IMG/VR virus record: IMGVR_UViG_3300042987_002196
Span: 1 to 55,939 of that record
DNA from: a virus
Lineage: Duplodnaviria; Caudoviricetes
Length of the DNA: 55,939 nucleotides
Reading direction: 5' to 3' (one strand)
In this document: piece after piece, positions 7,740 through 55,478 of the stretch
Position numbering within the stretch: the first letter of the stretch is position 1
How the letters are laid out: each line of letters opens with the position of its first letter
Program-made: the position numbers and the translations under genes
Notes under the pieces: model-generated
The model's database searches: none
What the model saw: only the letters and a program-made list of their open reading frames with translations
What the model was told of the DNA's origin: nothing

Positions 7740-8246
7740 CTATCCGAAGTTCGCAAATTCACCGAAGTGGTCGTGGGCGGCCTGGCAATACGCCATGTGG
7801 GCGGCCAGCTCGTCATGAAAGTAGCCGAGATGAGTCGATCTACCGTTGATGCGGATCTGGGCCATCCACTTGCGCTTGCGCTTGTACCAGCTCACGCCTT
7901 TATAGGCAGAAGTGGTACTGCTTCTTTTTCGCTGGTTGCGCACGTTTTCTGCAGCGGTGGCAAGTCGCAAATTGCAAATTCTGTTGTCGCTTGGGTTTCC
8001 GTTGATATGGTCAATTGCTTTCTCGCCTGGATTTTCACCATAAGCAAATAGCCATGCAAGGCGATGGGACTGCATGTTTATCCCGTGCAAGCGAATTTGC
8101 TTATAGCCGCTTCCGTTCGTCCAGCCAGCCTTCTTGCCTGGTTGCATCTTCTTGCCTGAGCACTTTAGCCAGAAGAACTCGCCAGTTTCCGCGTCGTAAC
8201 GCAGCCACTCCCTCAGCTTCGCGAGGTGCGGTAAACTCTTTGCCAT
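7740..8246 (-). CDS. HNH homing endonuclease with C-terminal AP2 domain
   Basis: HRLAW...IDHINGNPSDNRICNLR...N; SAYKGVSW..KWMAQI...HLGYF. Confidence 0.93.
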   Translation of the reverse strand: MAKSLPHLAKLREWLRYDAETGEFFWLKCSGKKMQPGKKAGWTNGSGYKQIRLHGINMQSHRLAWLFAYGENPGEKAIDHINGNPSDNRICNLRLATAAENVRNQRKRSSTTSAYKGVSWYKRKRKWMAQIRINGRSTHLGYFHDELAAHMAYCQAAHDHFGEFANFG

Positions 8247-8324
8247 CAGCCTGGGTTTGCGGGTTGATCACGCCTCGGGAGTTTGCGGCTCGCCGGGGCA
8301 CAAAAATCCTACCGCAGGCCATCG

Positions 8325-8446
8325 AAAAACTTAGGGACCCGGGCACTCGAGGCTTAATAGGAGTGTGTTTTGAAGCTCCTGGCCGTTCAAAAAAATTAGG
8401 GACCCGGGGGGCAAAGGTTTAATAGGGGGTGTTTTTGACCCTCCTG
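8325..8446. repeat. Two imperfect ~57-bp direct repeats (period 65)
   Basis: AAAAA(C/A)TTAGGGACCCGGG...TTAATAGG..GTGTTTT..CTCCTG at 8325-8381 and 8390-8446. Confidence 0.85.
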
Positions 8447-8465
8447 TTTTCGTGTTTTGGCTGAA

Positions 8466-8480
8466 AATGAGAATCATTCT
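8466..8480. promoter_or_regulatory. Fur-box-like site
   Basis: AATGAGAATCATTCT, core of the 19-mer repeated at 12073-12161. Confidence 0.55.
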
Positions 8481-8520
8481 GAATAGGGCCAATGTCAGCG
8501 ATTCCACACACACACACGAC

Positions 8521-8658
8521 TAGTACATCCGTTCGCTAATACATTTGTACTACCCGTATTTGTAGTACATTTGTACTACTTAAAGAGTACATTTGTACGC
8601 TAGTACATTTGTACTATTGTCATTTGCAGTACATTTGTACGCTAGTACATTTGTACTA
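8521..8658. promoter_or_regulatory. Tandem array of cyanobacterial-type LexA (SOS) boxes
   Basis: Perfect TAGTACATTTGTACTA at 8563, 8601, 8643; variants at 8537, 8585, 8627; degenerate copy at 8521. Confidence 0.75.
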
Positions 8659-8670
8659 TTAAGCCCGGCC

Positions 8671-8689
8671 GAGAATGAGAATCATTCCC
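8671..8689. promoter_or_regulatory. Fur-box-like site
   Basis: GAGAATGAGAATCATTC, exact reverse complement of the core at 12074, 12111, 12145. Confidence 0.6.
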
Positions 8690-8928
8690 ACGGCCAGGCC
8701 GGCAGGATCCCCCCACCCGACGCGCCGCGGTTTCGATCGGCGCTCTCCTTATGTATGGGGCGGCCAGGCCGACCCATTGCCTAGGTGCGTCCGCACAGTC
8801 GCAAGGAGCGCCGCGCCAGTGGCAACTAGGCCAATTGGCAAACTGACCCCACGCCCTCGCATCCGGGCCGGCCAGGGGGCATCATTCCCGCAGGCGCCAT
8901 CGCGCCATCCCATCGCGCCTAACACCAA

Positions 8929-9270
8929 ATGACCCTTACAATCACCCGGGCGCCCGCGCCCGCCTTCCCTCCCATTGATGATGCGATCGCCGCCCTTAGC
9001 GCGATCGATTGGCAAGCGGCCGCCGCCCGCGCCCTCGCCCTCGCCCTGACCGTTGCCGCGGTCTGCCACGCCCTCGCTGTTCGCCTGGCCCCGATCGTGG
9101 CCGCCGCCCTACGCGCCCTCGCCGATCGGATCGACCGGCCCGCGCCCATCGCGCCCGCCGCCCGCCTGACCGTGGCCGAACTGCGCGCCGCCGCCCGCGC
9201 CGCCGGTCTGCCGCGCCGCCTTTATATGTACGGCCGCCGGGCCGAGCTCCTGGCCGCCCTCGCCGTGTGA
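8929..9270 (+). CDS. Ala-rich protein with C-terminal Rho-N/HeH-like motif
   Basis: LTVAELRAAARAAGL...RRAELLAAL; preceded by the conserved leader. Confidence 0.65.
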   Translation: MTLTITRAPAPAFPPIDDAIAALSAIDWQAAAARALALALTVAAVCHALAVRLAPIVAAALRALADRIDRPAPIAPAARLTVAELRAAARAAGLPRRLYMYGRRAELLAALAV

Positions 9271-9365
9271 CGGTCGACAATCCGCACGCCCGCCCCTTGA
9301 TGGCGCCCCGTGAGGCGCCATCATTCCATCAACGGCCGAACGGTCGTTCCATCGCATCTAACACC

Positions 9366-9608
9366 ATGCCTGCCCCTTCCTTCCGCATCGAAACGTTCCG
9401 TGGCACGGCCGCCGGATGGGCGCCCGCCTCGCCCGCCGCTGTCAGTGCTGATACGGCCGCCCGTCGGCTCCGCCTGTATCAGGCCGTACGCGGCGACGCC
9501 CGCCTGTATCGGGTCGCGCCCGTGATCCTGCCGGGCGAATCTGCCGCCGCTGTCGCCGCCCTGCCGCGCCCCGTTGTCACCGGCGCCGCCCTTCCGGCGA
9601 TCGCCTGA
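9366..9608 (+). CDS. Hypothetical protein (80 aa)
   Basis: ATG follows CCATCGCATCTAACACC leader. Confidence 0.65.
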   Translation: MPAPSFRIETFRGTAAGWAPASPAAVSADTAARRLRLYQAVRGDARLYRVAPVILPGESAAAVAALPRPVVTGAALPAIA

Positions 9609-9633
9609 CCCTTCCCCATCGCATCTATCACCC

Positions 9634-9864
9634 ATGGCACGTATCACGCCCAATCAGCTCCACAAGGCCGCCGAGCGGGTCAGTTGCGCCCTCTACGGCG
9701 ACAGCCGCCCTAGCGAAATCTTCTGCCAACGTTCGGCCACCGGTTGGCACGTCATGCGCCGGTTCGGCGCCGGAGCTCAGCCGCTCGGCGAATGCTTAAC
9801 GCCCGGCGAGGCTCAGCAGTTGCTGAGCGGTCTGGCCATCGGCGCCGCCCTCGTTCGGTCATGA
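9634..9864 (+). CDS. Hypothetical protein (76 aa)
   Basis: ATG follows CCCATCGCATCTATCACCC leader. Confidence 0.7.
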   Translation: MARITPNQLHKAAERVSCALYGDSRPSEIFCQRSATGWHVMRRFGAGAQPLGECLTPGEAQQLLSGLAIGAALVRS

Positions 9865-10037
9865 CCCGCCCCGATCGCGCCCCGTGGCGCCAGTTACCGG
9901 CGGGCATGGTTGCCTCGTCCGATCCGGCCATGGCCGATCAGCTCGCCGCGATTCTCGCCGCCTACGCCGCCCGCGTCGCCGCCGGCCACCACGCCGCGCC
10001 ATCGCCTGATCGTTGGGCGATCAGCGACCGCGACTGA
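9861..10037 (+). CDS. Hypothetical protein (58 aa)
   Basis: ATGA overlap with upstream gene. Confidence 0.5.
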   Translation: MTRPDRAPWRQLPAGMVASSDPAMADQLAAILAAYAARVAAGHHAAPSPDRWAISDRD

Positions 10038-10067
10038 TCGCCCGCCCATCCCATCGTACCTAGCACC

Positions 10068-10631
10068 ATGCCTACTGTTCAGACCTGCCGCGTCGCCACC
10101 AAGATGGGCGACGCTATGGCGCCCGCCCATTGGGTGGGCCAATGGGTCGCCCTGACCCCGCCCTGTGATTCCGCCCGCCATTTCCCGGTTTGCCGCGGCC
10201 AATGGGTGATCACCCATAGGGCATCAGGCCTTAGCGCCGGGACTCTTCGCTGCAGCAAGCGGCGGGCCGCTGAGATCGCCCGCCAATGGGATCACCGGTT
10301 CGCGCTGATCGATCCTGCCGACGCCCGCGCCTGGCCGTTCGCCCGCCAATGGGCCGATCTGGTTGCGTCGATTAATGCACCATGGCGCGATCCGGCGCCC
10401 GCCGCCAATGATTCCACCGAGACCGCTTGTGAGCTCGCCGCCCGCGCCGGTCTGCCGATCGATCAGGCCGGCGGCGCCCGCCGGATCTGGTGGCGCGGCA
10501 AATTCTGGCCGCCCCCCACCAACGGCGAGCTCGAGCTCTGGACTCTGGACAGCTGCTGCGAGACGCCCGACGGCCGAACTGTTGAGCCGGACGCGCCCGA
10601 TTCTTGGCTGTCGATTCTCCGCCTGATCTGA
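10068..10631 (+). CDS. Hypothetical Trp-rich protein
   Basis: Leader motif; C-terminal WTLDSCCETPDGRTVEPDAPDSWL. Confidence 0.7.
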   Translation: MPTVQTCRVATKMGDAMAPAHWVGQWVALTPPCDSARHFPVCRGQWVITHRASGLSAGTLRCSKRRAAEIARQWDHRFALIDPADARAWPFARQWADLVASINAPWRDPAPAANDSTETACELAARAGLPIDQAGGARRIWWRGKFWPPPTNGELELWTLDSCCETPDGRTVEPDAPDSWLSILRLI

Positions 10632-10650
10632 TCACCCCGCACCTAACACC

Positions 10651-11718
10651 ATGCCCGCCGCTCTGATCCGCTCAAACGCCCGCGTTGCCCTGCCCGCCGA
10701 CGTGGCCGCCCATCTCGCTCGGTTCGGCCTGACCCTGGCCGACGTGCTGACAGACTCGAACCAGAAGCTAGGCAAAGGCGCCGAGATCGCCCGCGCCGTC
10801 ATTCACCACGGATTGCCGGGCCGCGCCCTCGCCGCCGCGATCGATCCCGCGAACCGGTCGACCGTGGCGCCCCGCGGCCATCTCGCCGCCCTCGCCGCCC
10901 TCGCCGATCGCGAGGGTATGACGGCCGCCGCGTCGGTGTTCAATGCCTGCCCGTGGGCTACGGAAGGTTGCGCGTCGGCCTGTCTAGCGTGGGCCGGCCA
11001 CGGCGGATTGTCGCCCGCGGTCGCCGCCGCCCGTGGCCGCCGGACTCTGGCAATGATCGCCGACCCCGCCCTCTACGGCCGGGCGATCCTATGGGCGATC
11101 GCCCGCCAATGGTCCCGCGCCCAGGCCGACGGTCTGCCCCTGGCCGTTCGGCTCCGTGGCACGGATGATCAGCCATGGCACGTTCGGCGGTTAAATGTCG
11201 ATCTGCCGGAGGCGATCGCGATCCGTCGCCGGTTCGGTCTGCTGATCGCGAACGGCGAGGGCCGGACTCTGGCCGAGCTGCTGTCGCCGGCCACGGCCGA
11301 CGGATCGATTCGCCTATATGAATACAGCAAAGCGCCGGTCGACGGGCCGCTCGGTCTGATCGCGCAACGGGCCGCCGGCTGGGATATCACCGCCAGCCTG
11401 GCCGGCGATCGCCCGACGGCCGCCGCCGACGCGATGGCCGCCGCCCTCGCCGGCTTCCGTCTCGCCGTGCCGATCGATCTACCTAAGGGCGCCCCGATCC
11501 CGGCCCGCGTGCTGATCAGCCATGGCGGCCAGACCGCCGCCCTGCGGGCGATCGATGGCGACGCCACCGACCACCGGTGGGCGGATCCTGCGCCCGTGGC
11601 TGTGATCCTGAGGGCGAAGCGATCCCGCGGCGCTGATCCGAACCTGGCCGGATTCATCCTGCCCAACGCGCCGCTAGTCCGCCTGCCCGACGGAATCATT
11701 CAGCTGATGCCCGCGTGA
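10651..11718 (+). CDS. GP88-like protein with Cys cluster
   Basis: SNQKLGK, CPWATEGCASACL, VRLRGTDD, YEYSK resemble the phage gene-product-88 family. Confidence 0.65.
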   Translation: MPAALIRSNARVALPADVAAHLARFGLTLADVLTDSNQKLGKGAEIARAVIHHGLPGRALAAAIDPANRSTVAPRGHLAALAALADREGMTAAASVFNACPWATEGCASACLAWAGHGGLSPAVAAARGRRTLAMIADPALYGRAILWAIARQWSRAQADGLPLAVRLRGTDDQPWHVRRLNVDLPEAIAIRRRFGLLIANGEGRTLAELLSPATADGSIRLYEYSKAPVDGPLGLIAQRAAGWDITASLAGDRPTAAADAMAAALAGFRLAVPIDLPKGAPIPARVLISHGGQTAALRAIDGDATDHRWADPAPVAVILRAKRSRGADPNLAGFILPNAPLVRLPDGIIQLMPA

Positions 11719-11742
11719 TCCGTTCCGGCGATCGATCGACCG

Positions 11743-11766
11743 GCCCGCCAGTTCGGCGGGCTTTTT
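11743..11766 (+). terminator. Rho-independent terminator of the island operon
   Basis: GCCCGCC-AGTTC-GGCGGGC-TTTTT. Confidence 0.85.
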
Positions 11767-11775
11767 AGTTTGCAT

Positions 11776-11802
11776 AAAGAAAGGGGGGCAATTGCCCCCC
11801 TA
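11776..11802 (-). terminator. Terminator for the minus-strand small gene
   Basis: GGGGGGCAATTGCCCCCC palindrome followed on the minus strand by TTTCTTT. Confidence 0.65.
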
Positions 11803-11803
11803 T

Positions 11804-11953
11804 TTAGTATTCAGTTTCGAGATCGATTGCTTCGATCTCTTTAATTAATGCTCGCGTCCGTTTGAGTAACTCTTGCGTCCGACGGTTCGACTCTTCATCG
11901 ATGCGGCGCAGTTCTTCTAATCGAGCTGCGAACATATCAGCGATTGATTGCAT
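11804..11953 (-). CDS. 49-aa charged helical protein (not in ORF track)
   Basis: MQSIADMFAARLEELRRIDEESNRRTQELLKRTRALIKEIEAIDLETEY; TATAAT in palindrome at 11994-12004 upstream, terminator downstream. Confidence 0.65.
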   Translation of the reverse strand: MQSIADMFAARLEELRRIDEESNRRTQELLKRTRALIKEIEAIDLETEY

Positions 11954-12072
11954 AAATTAAAGTGCAACGAAAAGTGAGCAGAACTGCTCACACTATAATT
12001 ATAGCAAATACTGGCGCGATCGGGCGAGATTGTAACAATTCTTAATGAGTAGTTCCGTACTACTCTCGGGTA

Positions 12073-12233
12073 AGAATGATTCTCATTCTCGCGGCCCCGC
12101 CGTTTAATGAGAATGATTCTCATTCTCCTGGCCATGGGTATTGAGAATGATTCTCATTCTCGCGGCCCCGGCTTATTGATTCTCAATTGCAAGTGTTATT
12201 GATTCTCAATGGGTCCCTGCAAATGATTCTCAG
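12073..12233. promoter_or_regulatory. Cluster of Fur-box-like sites
   Basis: GAGAATGATTCTCATTCTC at 12109 and 12143, near copy at 12073, degenerate TTATTGATTCTCAAT at 12173 and 12196; reverse complement matches GATAATGATAATCATTATC at 16/19. Confidence 0.65.
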
Positions 12234-12260
12234 CGGGGGTGAATTCGAATCTCGTTATTG
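12211..12260 (+). other. Candidate cos region
   Basis: GGGTCCCT (lambda cosQ is GGGTCCT) ~220 bp upstream of a lambda-type terminase. Confidence 0.4.
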
Positions 12261-12430
12261 ATCTAGGCATCGGCCGCGCAACTTGGTTTGAGTCCAGCCT
12301 GTCTCACGCAAAGACCCCCCTTTCCCCGCCAACGAGGCAACCGACCAGACTACCCTCCAGGACAGCGTTTTGGGGAGAGTGTCAACCAAGACTGTAAACC
12401 TGTAACATCGGTTCACATCAACGGCATCCC

Positions 12431-12967
12431 GTGCCGCTCATCACCAAGTCAGAGGCGGCCGACGCGCTGGGCGTGTCCCGCACGGCGGTCTACAAGGCGA
12501 TCAAGCAGGGCCGGCTCCCGGTCGTGCGGACCTCTGATGGCAAGGAGCTGATCAAGTCCGAGACGCTGCGCGAGGACTGGTTCGCCAACACCATGGCCAA
12601 GATCGGCGTTGGCCCCAAGCCGCCGATGGGCGAGACCGCCTTTCCTCCAGAGCGACCCAAGCGAGACCGATCACTCACCGAGCCCGAACCCGGTGACATT
12701 GTCCCCGACTACAACGAAAGCCGAGCCCGCACCGAGTACCTCAAGGCCGAGCTGCTTGAGCTGGAGCGCAAGGAGAAGGAAGGGCTGCTGGTGCGGGCGG
12801 CCGAGGTCGAGGCGAAGTGGGTCGAGGTAATCACGATCAGCCGCACCAAGGTGCTCGGCATCGCCAGCAAGGCGAAGCAGCGGATCCCCGATCTCACCCA
12901 AGATCAGATCGCGATCTTGGAAGACATCGTGCGCGAGGCGCTCGAGGAGCTGGCGAGCGATGGCTGA
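12431..12967 (+). CDS. terS: Terminase small subunit (HTH plus Nu1-like coiled coil)
   Basis: SEAADALGVSRTAVYKAI HTH; ESRARTEYLKAELLELE...EGLLV; overlaps terL. Confidence 0.88.
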   Translation: MPLITKSEAADALGVSRTAVYKAIKQGRLPVVRTSDGKELIKSETLREDWFANTMAKIGVGPKPPMGETAFPPERPKRDRSLTEPEPGDIVPDYNESRARTEYLKAELLELERKEKEGLLVRAAEVEAKWVEVITISRTKVLGIASKAKQRIPDLTQDQIAILEDIVREALEELASDG

Positions 12968-44755: not shown

Positions 44756-45054
44756 GATTCGCCTCTCGCGACGGCACGGTCACATTCGACGAGGGGCTTG
44801 AGACTGCTTATGAGCTGTTTCGCGAGGGTCGCATCCAAGATGCGGCCATGATGTTCCTCGTCTACGCAGACCCCGACGCGATCGGCATCGTCGGCGAGAG
44901 CGAGTACAACGCTCTCGCTGCCCATTTCAAAGAGATGATGGCGTACGTGAAGCTGTACCAAATGATCTGCGACGAGCTCGCGCAGCCACTGCTCAGCGAA
45001 AACGGCAAGCCGGCCTACATGGTCGGGCCGGCGGCTGAGGACGACGAAGACTAG
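44752..45054 (+). CDS. Hypothetical acidic protein
   Basis: ATGA-coupled to thyX. Confidence 0.65.
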   Translation: MRFASRDGTVTFDEGLETAYELFREGRIQDAAMMFLVYADPDAIGIVGESEYNALAAHFKEMMAYVKLYQMICDELAQPLLSENGKPAYMVGPAAEDDED

Positions 45055-46163
45055 ATCTGATCAGCCACAGCCCTCGCCATCGCTTGCGCTCCATCCTCGA
45101 GTAGGTGCGCGTAGCGGTTGGTGGTCAGCGGGCTGGCATGGCCGAGCAGATTGCCGACCTGCGGCAGCGTCAGGCCAACCTTGGTGATCGCCACCGACGC
45201 CCAGTGGTGCCGCAGGTCATGCACCTTCAGGTTCTTGATGTCGGCAAGGACCATCAGCTCTTCCCATAGGTTCTGATACCCCACCAGATAGCCATCGTCC
45301 TGCCCTGCGATAATCCATTGTGTATTTGATTTGAGTCTCAATTCTCTCAAAATGAGAATTCCTGCAGGAGGAATATGCACTACACGCTTTTGGCCAGTGC
45401 GATTGCCAGTCTTGTGACTGTCGGCGGGTATCGCGATCACGCCTGTTTTCTCGTCGAACCACTCCCATCTAGCGCGGCAGATTTCACTCACGCGGCACCC
45501 CGTCAGCATCAGCAGCCGTATCAGCTGAGCGAACCGCCAGCGCAATGGCGAGGTGGCTATCGCGTCCAGTGCGGCCACCAGCCGCTGTCGCTCTTCGCCT
45601 GACAGGTAACGCCTCCGCTTGCGCTCGGTGTTGGCCGGCACCTTGGCGCAGGGGTTGTCCGCCCGCAGGCCCCACAGGATCGACAGGTTGAACGCCTTGC
45701 GCAGCACCGCCAGCGTCCGGTTGGCTTGGATCGGCCGGATGCGCGACAGCAGACGCATCACCTCGGCGCTTGTGACCACCTGCACCTTCTGTCGCCCCAG
45801 CTTCGGGATGATGTGGACCTGCCAGATGCTCTGGTAGTTCTTCGCCGTGCCCGGCCGGAGCTTCGGGTAGTGCTCGGCCAGCAAGCGCTGGTACAGATCA
45901 GCCATGTCGGGGCCGCGGCGCAGTTCCTGGCGGGCGCTGGTGGGTGCATGCCCACGCGCCACGGCGGCAAGGATCTTGTGCGCCTCCTCGCGGGCCAGCG
46001 TGCGGTTGAGAATGTCAGCCCGGCCGATCTTGTGATGCTGCTGTTTGCCGCTCGGTTCGCGGTAGCGCAGATACCACGTTTCGACACCGCTCGGCAGCAC
46101 CAACAGGCCCAGTCCGGTGACCTTTGAGTCTGGCTTCCACTCGCGTTTCATACGTCCCTCCAT
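45051..46163 (-). CDS. int: Tyrosine integrase with arm-binding domain
   Basis: TGCRVSE, HDLRH, LLGH, RYAH; N-terminal GLGL..SG.ETW..RYR. Confidence 0.96.
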   Translation of the reverse strand: MEGRMKREWKPDSKVTGLGLLVLPSGVETWYLRYREPSGKQQHHKIGRADILNRTLAREEAHKILAAVARGHAPTSARQELRRGPDMADLYQRLLAEHYPKLRPGTAKNYQSIWQVHIIPKLGRQKVQVVTSAEVMRLLSRIRPIQANRTLAVLRKAFNLSILWGLRADNPCAKVPANTERKRRRYLSGEERQRLVAALDAIATSPLRWRFAQLIRLLMLTGCRVSEICRARWEWFDEKTGVIAIPADSHKTGNRTGQKRVVHIPPAGILILRELRLKSNTQWIIAGQDDGYLVGYQNLWEELMVLADIKNLKVHDLRHHWASVAITKVGLTLPQVGNLLGHASPLTTNRYAHLLEDGAQAMARAVADQI

Positions 46164-53635: not shown

Positions 53636-53850
53636 TTCTCTGGTCGTGGGGTATTGGGGAAGCCGCGCATGTTGCGCTGCTCGAATTGAACGATTTCGTG
53701 GATTGGATAGAGCACTCGACCGCCGGCTTTGAACCAGCGCGGACCACGTTGCTGAGATCGCCAGTTGTCTAGCGTGCTCAGGCTGACGACATTACGCCAG
53801 CGCTCAGCCAGCTCACGTGGGGTCAAGTACGTCTCACCAGACTGAATCAT
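53632..53850 (-). CDS. MerR/Xis-like HTH protein (possible excisionase)
   Basis: YLTPRELAERW...TLDNWR...GP...GGRVLY. Confidence 0.8.
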   Translation of the reverse strand: MIQSGETYLTPRELAERWRNVVSLSTLDNWRSQQRGPRWFKAGGRVLYPIHEIVQFEQRNMRGFPNTPRPEK

Positions 53851-54499
53851 CCGTTGCCTCTTGTGGTTCAGTTTCTTGCTGAATTTTTTTGTTCAGGTCA
53901 TTCACGATGGTGGTTTGCTCTGTTACCTGCACCTCTTCAATATCAACGACTTCCTCCTGCGTCTTCATCCCAACCAAGAACTCCGGCACGTAAAGACGGC
54001 CCCAGAAGGCAGCTGCTCTGTACCTGCACATCAAGTCCGGCATCGTTTGCCATTTTGAGCCAGACTTCGTCGCCCATCCTTCGCGCTTCGCCATTGCCAT
54101 GGTCACAACCGGACCCTTCAGCTCCTTGCCGGTGGCAAGCTCTGTGGCATAGGCAAAACAACTGAGACTGTCCCCTTCGCCGCTGACGTTGTAGTCCAAC
54201 GGCGAGAACCTCCCGCACCCATTGATCATCGCGATGATGAACTGCGACGACCAGCTAGGGCGTCCATGGATGATGTGAAGGTTCTGCATCACCTGCAAGG
54301 GGCTGAGTCCCATGCGGCCAGCGATCTCCATCGCCACCAACGTGTTGGCCAGGCCCTGTTGTCCTTGGTATTCCTTGGGCACCAGCGCTGATGAAGAAAG
54401 CGCCTTGCCTATTCTCTGGGCATTTTCAAATTGTTGAATCCCAGTGAACACACCGTCACTCGGCTGGGTTACGACCAGCGCATTTTTTTCGTTTGTCAT
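53834..54499 (-). CDS. RecT-like single-strand annealing protein
   Basis: LVPKEYQG, MQNLHIIHGRPSW, AKREGW..KW...M; next to RecE-like gene. Confidence 0.8.
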   Translation of the reverse strand: MTNEKNALVVTQPSDGVFTGIQQFENAQRIGKALSSSALVPKEYQGQQGLANTLVAMEIAGRMGLSPLQVMQNLHIIHGRPSWSSQFIIAMINGCGRFSPLDYNVSGEGDSLSCFAYATELATGKELKGPVVTMAMAKREGWATKSGSKWQTMPDLMCRYRAAAFWGRLYVPEFLVGMKTQEEVVDIEEVQVTEQTTIVNDLNKKIQQETEPQEATDDSVW

Positions 54500-55320
54500 T
54501 AGAAACCTTCGATTTCAGTGATGGAGTCAGACTGATCTTCTTGAAGCCAGTCGGGAACTACTAGCGACTGTATTTCGTCGCCGTAGCCCGGCCACTTGTT
54601 TTCTTCCTTGCATGCGGCAAGGAGTCGCAGGTCTTGTAATGCATCCCGTGAACCACGTTCGAGCAGTTCTGGTGGCGTTGCGTACACCGCGACGCAGTAA
54701 GGCGGTTTCTTTTCGACTGCGATGAACAGAAACTCTTCTGCGCCAATGCCTTGACTGTAAAACGCTGCCTGCACGTGGTAGCGATACTTGATTACCGAAC
54801 GAATGAAGCTGCGAGGACTTGCGTCATCTGTCGTTTTGACATCGGCAATTAACTTTCGGTTATCGCTGTGCCAGTCCGGCCGGCACTTGCAGGCAACACC
54901 AGTAGTCTCGTCAGTCCAAAAGTAAGACTGCTCGCATTTACCAGGCAGTCGCAGGATCGTGCTGGCTGCGGGGTGGCGATGCACCGCCTTAGCCATCGCC
55001 TCGATCTGGGCAGCATCCTCGGACTTGAGCACCGTCTTGCCCTCGGCCTCGGCCTCGAAATCCGCCCACCGCAGCTTGCCCTCCTTGGTGCGGCGATCGA
55101 TGCCCTCCGGCGCGACCACGTATTCGTCGTCGAATAGATGCGGCTCCAGCACCCGTGCATGCAGCGCCGAACCGATCACCATCGCAGCAGTCGGTGGCTC
55201 AACGATCCGGTTCGGATTGAGGTAGCGGTTCCAGTAGTGCAGCGGCGAACGCCGGATCAGATCCAGCCCGCTTTTCGAGATCTCGGGTCTCGCGTGGTAC
55301 TCCGCGTTGGTCAGCCCCAT
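54499..55320 (-). CDS. RecE/exonuclease VIII-like nuclease
   Basis: YHA..ISKSGL, GSALH, CKCRPD, DVKTT, YHVQAAFY. Confidence 0.92.
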   Translation of the reverse strand: MGLTNAEYHARPEISKSGLDLIRRSPLHYWNRYLNPNRIVEPPTAAMVIGSALHARVLEPHLFDDEYVVAPEGIDRRTKEGKLRWADFEAEAEGKTVLKSEDAAQIEAMAKAVHRHPAASTILRLPGKCEQSYFWTDETTGVACKCRPDWHSDNRKLIADVKTTDDASPRSFIRSVIKYRYHVQAAFYSQGIGAEEFLFIAVEKKPPYCVAVYATPPELLERGSRDALQDLRLLAACKEENKWPGYGDEIQSLVVPDWLQEDQSDSITEIEGF

Positions 55321-55478
55321 AGGCTTAACTTGCGTCTGTGGACAAAAGCTTACCGCTGTTTCCCGCACCTTCATCGCTCCTTGTCGCATTTCTTCGCACT
55401 TCACGGGAATTCCCGACTAAGTGCTTATTATTGCTTGGTTTTTTGATTTATCCCTTGCAGACCAGTTAGGTCAAGACC
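55321..55478. promoter_or_regulatory. Divergent promoter region between the recombination arm and helicase
   Basis: AT-rich intergenic stretch between divergent ATGs. Confidence 0.55.

Follow-up and report, generated by a model that had tools for sequence, protein, structure and literature searches.

How phages acquire ORFan accessory genes and express them at once is an open question, and it is raised in compact form by an island (~8.7-11.77 kb) in the IMG/VR virus record IMGVR_UViG_3300042987_002196, whose whole length of 55,939 bp, rated 100% complete, is the window analysed here. The island belongs to a temperate siphovirus-like phage and forms a polycistronic accessory operon, in which six genes (g1 to g6) lie on the + strand, and five of its start codons (8929, 9366, 9634, 10068 and 10651) are abutted by the same short leader, YCCCATCGCAYCTANCACC. 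We think, with slightly more confidence than doubt, that this leader is an unstructured module for Shine-Dalgarno (SD)-independent initiation of translation, and that its repetition at the same time furnishes the homology used in cassette turnover. A single short element would then appear to give both an SD-free start site and the homology needed for the movement of cassettes between related phages.

The five leaders quoted in the original prediction for this locus are all where it had placed them, each ending 0-2 nt before an ATG that opens an open reading frame (ORF), and its description of the region as a "cassette-like array" is a fair one; the prediction omitted the sixth gene, g4, whose start is coupled to the end of g3 (coordinates of all features are given in the table). 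When both strands are scanned for CCATCGCATCTAACACC with up to 3 mismatches, 4 sites are found, each of them inside the island and in + orientation, whereas 0.09 are expected from shuffled sequences, none of 100 of which reaches 4. No copy of the leader was found elsewhere in the record, so that the early remark that the motif had not been noticed outside the island stands, and in two relatives searched whole it likewise occurs only within the island and on a single strand (3 matches in a complete 55.8-kb record, 4 in a 33-kb record). The copy in front of g6 is degenerate in the window, and the canonical form CCATCGCACCTAGCACC stands before this gene in L162, L166 and L171-L174.

These relatives come from a search with g6, which gave 32 viral loci and one contig binned in a Gammaproteobacteria metagenome-assembled genome, and from an exact-pattern scan of metagenome contigs, which gave at least 17 further loci, 11 of them judged to be island relatives and 6 isolated chance matches (L159, L160, L163, L164, L168 and L169, each with a single match in an unrelated context, were set aside). 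A first, looser pattern scan of viral sequences had given mostly single chance matches and only one informative locus (L050). Across the window and 13 related loci there are 45 leader instances (36 distinct) with the consensus YCCCATCGCACCTANCACC, and 45/45 end 0-2 nt before an ATG or GTG, on the coding strand. The core word, CCATCGCAYC (CCATCGCAC), lies at about -17 to -8 from the ATG, and the repeated unit often opens at the upstream stop codon (TGATCGCCGC...CCC...leader...ATG), which amounts to ~20-40 nt of homology.

The absence of an SD from the leaders, also part of the original prediction, is confirmed by three comparisons. None of the five leader starts has GGAG, GAGG or AGGA between -20 and -4, whereas 13 of 30 other phage genes with family support do; the 20 nt before the start contain on average 1.6 G in the leaders (1-2 each) versus 6.3 in the same 30 genes; and the computed duplex energy with the anti-SD is +0.5 to +1.9 kcal/mol for the leaders versus a mean of -5.6 for the 30 genes, 16 of which are at -6 kcal/mol or lower, the average of 2000 random windows being -3.3. 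Folding was modelled on an operon RNA running from 8760 to 11775, the ends of the transcript being assumed. In this model, the 20 nt before the leader starts have an unpaired probability of 0.67-0.88 (transcript mean 0.415), that is, they fall between the 96th and the 99.7th percentile of all 20-nt windows, and when the 37 AUG triplets of the RNA are ranked by openness, leader starts take places 1, 2, 3, 4 and 7, internal AUGs averaging 0.40. The coupled start of g4, by comparison, is predicted to be structured (31st percentile). The same picture is found in L125, L126, L128 and L157, where non-coupled starts have 1-4 G per 20 nt and are predicted to be open (86th to 99.9th percentile) and coupled starts range from the 1st to the 53rd percentile; three of these four loci carry different leader sequences, yet keep open starts. 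To judge from these models, the property that is kept in every lineage is an SD-free, G-poor and open start region, the particular word being specific to each lineage.

Because the leader is flush with the start codon, stands before g1, is absent at the coupled start and has no anti-SD pairing, and because openness is retained in lineages that have changed the sequence, we infer that it is an initiation region without an SD pair. Leader-driven translation is thereby supported indirectly, and it is in this qualified form, with strand specificity and predicted openness as further indications, that we retain the SD-independent translation enhancer proposed at first. One could imagine that the leader only allows ribosomes to restart after an upstream ORF, and a frame ending at the ATG of g1 (8675-8932) was considered for this role and rejected, being open over only 12-89 codons in relatives. 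The first gene of the operon has no conserved upstream ORF yet carries a leader, which therefore is not only a re-initiation spacer. SD-independent starts are known to show a local minimum of mRNA folding at true AUGs, internal AUGs being structured (Scharff et al. 2011, PMC3121790; Nakagawa et al. 2017, PMC5397173). Initiation of this kind resembles that proposed for the island in the lack of an SD and in the minimal predicted structure at starts, but, as presented in the parts of these two studies used here, it needs no conserved motif, whereas the island leaders are a specific word of 17-19 nt, repeated and conserved. Something beyond openness, either exchange or a factor, should therefore be acting.

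The evidence for exchange comes from the gene content of the islands. Written with a slash for a leader junction and a plus sign for a coupled start, the window reads g1 / g2 / g3+g4 / g5 / g6, L125 reads g1 / c57 / c92+g4 / g5 / g6, L127 reads g1 / c69 / g3+g4 / g5 / g6, L161 reads g1 / c57 / c85+g4 / g5 / g6, L162 reads g1 / c57 / c92+g4, then c58b / g6 (c58b starting behind a non-canonical leader), L174 reads g1 / c67 / g6, and the partial L165 reads c67 / c69 / c57 / g3+g4 / g5. Unrelated ORFs (c57, c67, c69) thus occupy the place of g2 in relatives, an orthologue of g2 being found in L157. The canonical leader precedes 11 unrelated ORF families and joins at least 17 different pairs of upstream and downstream genes. 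In L174, a single leader separates the stop codon of c67 from the ATG of g6, and in L165 a leader links this same stop to c69; in L162, a leader of the g5 type, including its 5' extension, is fused to the ATG of g6; and a contig from another freshwater run has 241 other letters in place of positions 9348-9614 of the window, i.e. from leader 2 to leader 3. Private variants are moreover common to neighbours: of the 45 leaders only two have the CGCATC variant, and these lie on either side of g2, the cassette specific to the window, a TAGAACC variant occurs twice in L166/L172, and CCCACACC lies around c67 in L165.

The similarity sometimes extends into the genes. The unrelated g1 (8929-8937) and c57 (at its starts in L161, L165, L167 and L170) both begin with ATGACCCTT, four genes of L157 (5014, 5493, 5683 and 6004) begin with (A/G)TGCTTTCC, and four L157 genes share …GCC-ATGCTTTCC, which spans the start codon. 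As the sequence in common continues beyond the start codon, the process that homogenises the leaders apparently rewrites the first codons as well. Within the leader, the 5' half has itself a period of 5 nt, with 2-4 copies of ATCCC or ATCGC units (8898-8928, 10045-10060; L128 4988-5010), and the tandem of the core before g1 makes one and a half copies; this suggests slippage or unequal exchange within the leader.

Since cassettes differ exactly at the junctions, neighbours have private variants in common, first codons are shared and the phage encodes RecT and a RecE-like exonuclease, the repeats can be regarded as a substrate of cassette turnover, for which these two proteins are candidate machinery of short-homology exchange. 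The idea of RecET-mediated cassette exchange put forward at the outset thus keeps its core (cassettes do differ exactly between conserved leaders, and RecT/RecE-like proteins are encoded) and loses free shuffling, the order being fixed. Breakpoints were expected at the motif in relatives, and junctions are indeed at leaders, apart from one joint (9301/9908) that lies off them. The term "microhomology" has to be given up, a unit of ~20-40 nt from stop to ATG being short homology. Two of the three roles suggested at first, in translation and in cassette exchange, are thus the ones that find support, the third being that of an RNA-binding or processing site.

The mechanism that we favour would then run as follows. 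The spacer between an upstream TGA and the next ATG would be a repeated module ending in YCCCATCGCAYCTANCACC and, being nearly free of G, it would form no SD pair and remain single-stranded in a GC-rich, G-limited mRNA, so that ribosomes could land there and select the start without an SD at each cistron that is not coupled. The same 20-40 nt, present in direct orientation at every junction, could provide the homology for deletion, insertion and replacement of small ORFan cassettes, the likely machinery being the phage's own RecT and RecE-like exonuclease.

How far the word itself is constrained can be appreciated by comparing it with the genes around it. In the closest islands, third codon positions are 72-83% identical and leader 17-mers 84-94%; with the distant L172, third codon positions fall to 50-54% and leader 17-mers stay at 84-86%. 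The leader word appears from this to be more conserved than neutral sites. L128, whose g6 is 70% identical, retains the core CCATCGCAYC with a different tail (…CATTCC) that is common to two or three of its leaders. In L126 (g6 86% identical), the core stands before two genes only, and a second leader of 12 nt is common to the two leftmost genes, one of them a c57 homologue. In L157 (g6 67% identical), orthologues of g2, g4 and g6 stand behind unrelated T/C-rich leaders. The nine islands in which g1 has been seen, always as the first gene, keep the core, and the two without g1 (L126 and L157) have degenerate or different leaders. A scan with the L128-type leader gave, besides the L128 contig, only 11 single matches among those listed, the estimated chance level.

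Several observations weigh against our interpretation. The predicted openness follows from the G-poor composition of the leaders, G being the limiting base of a C-rich transcript, and was computed with a thermodynamic model in which the ends of the transcript are assumed. Were openness the sole requirement, the core would be free to drift, and it persists to L128; at 70% identity of g6, this persistence suggests an added sequence-specific constraint, or homogenisation by exchange. Conversely, other leaders stand before the orthologues of g2, g4 and g6 in L157 and before those of g3, g5 and g6 in L126, so that these genes can do without the exact motif, and even in motif-bearing islands c58b of L162 and the middle genes of L172 have non-canonical or coupled starts. 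As to exchange, a second contig (X5) replaces 9302-9907 with limits off the leaders, on the left in the g1-g2 spacer and on the right inside g4. The order of cassette families is identical in every island, with gain, loss and allelic replacement and never a permutation, which makes "shuffling" too strong a word. Finally, the action of RecT and the RecE-like protein on the leader repeats is deduced solely from the presence of their genes.

These points invite the suggestion that the repeat is a mere by-product of recombination: cassettes would come and go by homologous exchange at their junctions, which would copy the same spacer over and over, and the repeat would have no role of its own in translation except not to block it. 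We regard this as rather unlikely, even if it would account well for the gain, loss and replacement of cassettes exactly at junctions, for the private variants of neighbours, for the shared sequence entering ORFs and for the encoded RecT and RecE-like exonuclease, as well as for the fact that c57 has a type-A leader in most islands but, in L126, the different 12-nt leader of its neighbour. What such a scenario leaves unexplained is why leaders are G-poor, SD-free and open in every lineage whatever their sequence, why the repeat is flush with the start codon in 45/45 cases, and why the coupled start has no leader.

The persistence of the core could also mean that the leader is a sequence-specific operator for a trans-acting factor, either an RNA-level repressor or activator or a protein bound at a DNA-level site, encoded by the phage or by the island itself, with g1 as a candidate; this seems to us unlikely, and slightly more so than a mere by-product of exchange. 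The core does lie at a fixed distance from the ATG and is conserved beyond synonymous sites down to L128, its retention follows the presence of g1, and the authors of the SAS study in Cluster K mycobacteriophages, a comparable case discussed below, likewise left open a binding factor of host or phage origin in the portion of their report used here (PMC3203893). However, the correlation with g1 rests on the two islands that lack it, and the islands are not phylogenetically independent; the nucleic-acid-binding motif of g1 (Pfam SAP, E=0.009) is below the Pfam cut-off; the leader has no dyad symmetry; and its extreme G-poor strand asymmetry is what one would sooner expect of a property at the RNA level than of a site where a protein binds duplex DNA. 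Sites for a repressor that have one orientation are described for Cluster A mycobacteriophages, and a DNA-level operator could resemble these, as an RNA-level factor could resemble a translational repressor with several target initiation regions.

A bolder version of the same idea, which we consider quite improbable, is that the leader, being more than an open spacer, is a word specifically recognised by a factor that the island encodes (the SAP/HeH-like g1 being the candidate) and that the island is a self-contained, integrase-free gene-cassette platform, in which one word would both license SD-independent translation of whatever ORF follows it and mark the junctions of RecT/RecE-like capture, lineages changing word and factor together, as the L128-, L126- and L157-type leaders might illustrate.

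That each leader is a transcription or RNA-fate signal (a promoter for each cassette, an endonuclease processing site, or a Rho entry site enforcing polarity) we consider very improbable: the leaders have the C-rich, G-poor and unstructured composition of Rho entry sites, but each is only ~20-40 nt long, a consensus scan of 8200-12500 finds no sigma-70-like promoter (0 sites versus 1.0 expected from shuffles) and no terminator-like hairpin between island genes, Rfam gives over the same interval three sub-threshold matches at chance level, none of them on a leader, and a promoter for leaderless mRNA was rejected, the TA-containing part of the leader (-7 to -2 from the ATG) being too near the start to serve as a -10 box even for such an mRNA. 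In T4-type phages, regulatory cassettes are nevertheless known to recur between ORFs (PeSL; PMC2839356, PMC4122927), and the comparison with these and with other systems is instructive.

A close likeness is that with the Start-Associated Sequences (SAS) of Cluster K mycobacteriophages, with the consensus 5'-GGGATAGGAGCCC, whose AGGAG core is an SD capable of pairing with 16S rRNA. Neither the host nor other phages have SAS, for which a role in translation initiation is proposed but unproven (Pope et al. 2011, PMC3203893). Like the leader, SAS is a short asymmetric repeat in one orientation, a few nt before the starts of many unrelated non-structural genes, with a preference for ATG. The leader differs from it in being G-poor, with no pairing potential and no sequence similarity to SAS, and in its distribution, SAS having 11-19 copies over the non-structural half of the genome and the leader 5 copies in one 3-kb operon (8905-10650). 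SAS-bearing families vary among Cluster K phages, but cassette exchange at SAS is not described in the portion of the report mentioned above (PMC3203893). Such exchange is found with PeSL (promoter-early stem-loop), a strong sigma-70-like early promoter combined with a terminator hairpin in T4-type phages, where recombination of one repeat with the next gives rise to mini-circles (Arbiol et al. 2010, PMC2839356; Comeau et al. 2014, PMC4122927). Here again the likeness is clear, with small conserved regulatory repeats lying between ORFan genes of a hyperplastic region and with indel and replacement junctions at the repeats, which serve as points of homologous exchange. However, as described in the parts of these two papers used here, each PeSL ORF is its own transcription unit, whereas the leader, without promoter-like site or hairpin, is a translation-start spacer inside one operon; and the phages are T4-type myoviruses in one case and, in the other, a temperate siphovirus-like phage with RecT and a RecE-like exonuclease. 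The leader works like SAS and like PeSL and is a member of neither.

If our interpretation is correct, the leader is a translation-level counterpart to the promoter/terminator cassettes of PeSL and an SD-free counterpart to the SAS of mycobacteriophages, and with its ~20 nt it offers a compact means of SD-independent expression in hosts of high GC content. What is still to be explained, and is amenable to test, is why a specific word is conserved more than openness demands. A limited search of the literature gave no description of a G-poor, SD-free start-codon repeat serving as cassette junction in a phage operon, and we do not claim that none is in print.

Two other kinds of accessory units come to mind. 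Integron arrays consist of small promoterless cassettes in one orientation behind a common upstream region, with a content that varies between relatives, and the island is alike in all this. The leader array is nevertheless not an integron, because it lacks both a neighbouring integrase and an attC-like repeat: no integrase-like gene lies beside the island, the only integrase match (phrog_1) being at 45051-46163, ~33 kb away, and the spacers (19-40 nt, G-poor) cannot self-pair as attC would, although no dedicated search for inverted repeats was made. The leader is moreover located 5' of each ORF, at the start codon, and not 3', and the order of cassettes appears fixed. A phage moron is an accessory unit in which a promoter and a terminator of its own flank non-essential genes; the island has its own terminator and, upstream, only a conserved TATATA-containing block before g1 (6 of 8 aligned relatives).

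Table. Positions of the leaders, island genes and neighbouring features in the window
Feature	Position	Strand	Remarks
HNH-AP2 endonuclease	7740-8246	-	family scan
Upstream control region	8318-8690	.	make-up differs between relatives
Two ~55-nt direct repeats	8318-8440
Palindrome GAATGAGAATCATTC	8465, 8673, 12074, 12105, 12111, 12145
6-7 repeats of AGTACATTTGTAC	8538-8656
Leader 1, CCATCCCATCGCGCCTAACACCAA	8905-8928	+	0 nt to ATG of g1; partial tandem copy of the core before it (8898-8909)
g1	8929-9270	+	113 aa; hydrophobic middle; C-terminal SAP/HeH-like motif
Leader 2, CCATCGCATCTAACACC	9349-9365	+	precedes g2
g2	9366-9608	+	80 aa; ORFan cassette
Leader 3, CCCATCGCATCTATCACCC	9615-9633	+	precedes g3
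g3	9634-9864	+	76 aa; cassette; c92 or c85 in this slot in relatives
g4	9861-10037	+	58 aa; start overlaps stop of g3 (ATGA); no leader
Leader 4, CCCATCCCATCGTACCTAGCACC	10045-10067	+	precedes g5
g5	10068-10631	+	187 aa; Cys-rich; no family; c58b instead in L162, absent in L174
Leader 5, CCCCGCACCTAACACC	10635-10650	+	degenerate; precedes g6; seen only at 3-4 mismatches
g6	10651-11718	+	355 aa; Pfam GP88 (PF17338) / phrog_1617
Intrinsic terminator-like hairpin and T run	11742-11762	+	closes the operon
RecT-like annealing protein	53834-54499	-	family scan
RecE / exonuclease VIII-like protein	54499-55404	-	family scan

The record is circularly permuted, its helicase gene being divided between the two ends, and the runs that hold the island are freshwater metagenomes. 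Family scans of the window identified primase/helicase, the small and large (gpA-type) terminase subunits, portal, major head protein, tape measure, a J-like tail fibre protein, endolysin, tyrosine integrase and SSB. Together with RecT and the RecE-like exonuclease, these genes indicate that the phage is temperate and siphovirus-like and has a short-homology recombination system of its own. The best match of its large terminase subunit among isolates is a freshwater Synechococcus siphophage (44.8%), and no isolated phage with similar DNA was found among those searched. Between 8700 and 11720, the GC content is 65-73% versus ~60% elsewhere in the record. The same interval has 17.5 GATC per kb (2.6 expected by composition) versus 8.3 per kb in the rest of the phage, 5.0 CGATCG per kb versus 0.9, and the octamer GCGATCGC five times within the 3-kb island versus once in 53 kb. 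We take this octamer to be the HIP1 repeat of cyanobacteria, which would fit a cyanobacterial history of the island.

The repeat arrays on the left side of the island directly adjoin, on their own left, a gene for an HNH endonuclease that carries an AP2 DNA-binding domain; L125 has one in the same place, and L127 has other genes there. This enzyme could possibly be a homing element that stimulates exchange nearby. Repeat clusters of the protein-binding type bracket the island (8318-8690 and 12074-12159). Comparable regions are seen in L125 (3590-4070, with about nine copies of the palindrome and TATAACG repeats), in L128 (4470-4800, with CTGCAGCAC five times) and in L157 (4370-4720), and GP88 loci further removed have tandem arrays of quite another kind. 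In sequence, the palindrome may resemble iron-regulator boxes, and the bracketing repeats are possibly operators, an origin or a partition site. Just upstream of g1, a block of ~180 nt (8720-8900) with a box of the CCTTATATATGGGG type shows conservation in 6 of 8 aligned relatives, L166/L172 lacking 37 nt of it, and the ORF overlapping it (8675-8932) is not conserved; the block is possibly the promoter and 5' untranslated region of the operon.

The constant last gene of the islands, g6, is the sole one with a family, no other cassette ORF that was scanned having a match in Pfam. The block N98-x-C100-P-W-A…G-C107…C111-L-x-W-A-G-H117-G-G is invariant in 20 GP88 homologues. The AlphaFold model of g6 is confident (pLDDT 86.7); Foldseek gave no match to it in the PDB, and a wide VIA search put weak, radical-SAM-like partial barrels on top (Z 5.0-5.8). 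The GP88 family is abundant in metagenomes, where it is always unnamed, and its matches in isolated phages are limited to 45 mycobacteriophages and one Pelagibacter phage. In relatives with ~55-60% identity (L129-L134, L138 and L144-L154), an open Q/P/A-rich linker lies just before the GP88 match, and the domain seems to be fused there to an N-terminal domain rather than standing alone. The CCCACCACTACCACC words found before distant GP88 genes look like coding N-termini and were not retained as leaders.

On the right side, two small convergent ORFs on the - strand (49 and 72 aa, 11804-12135), without family, lie between the island terminator and the terminase genes. The start of the 72-aa ORF falls inside the right-hand palindrome cluster, and this ORF may encode an autoregulated protein that binds the palindrome.

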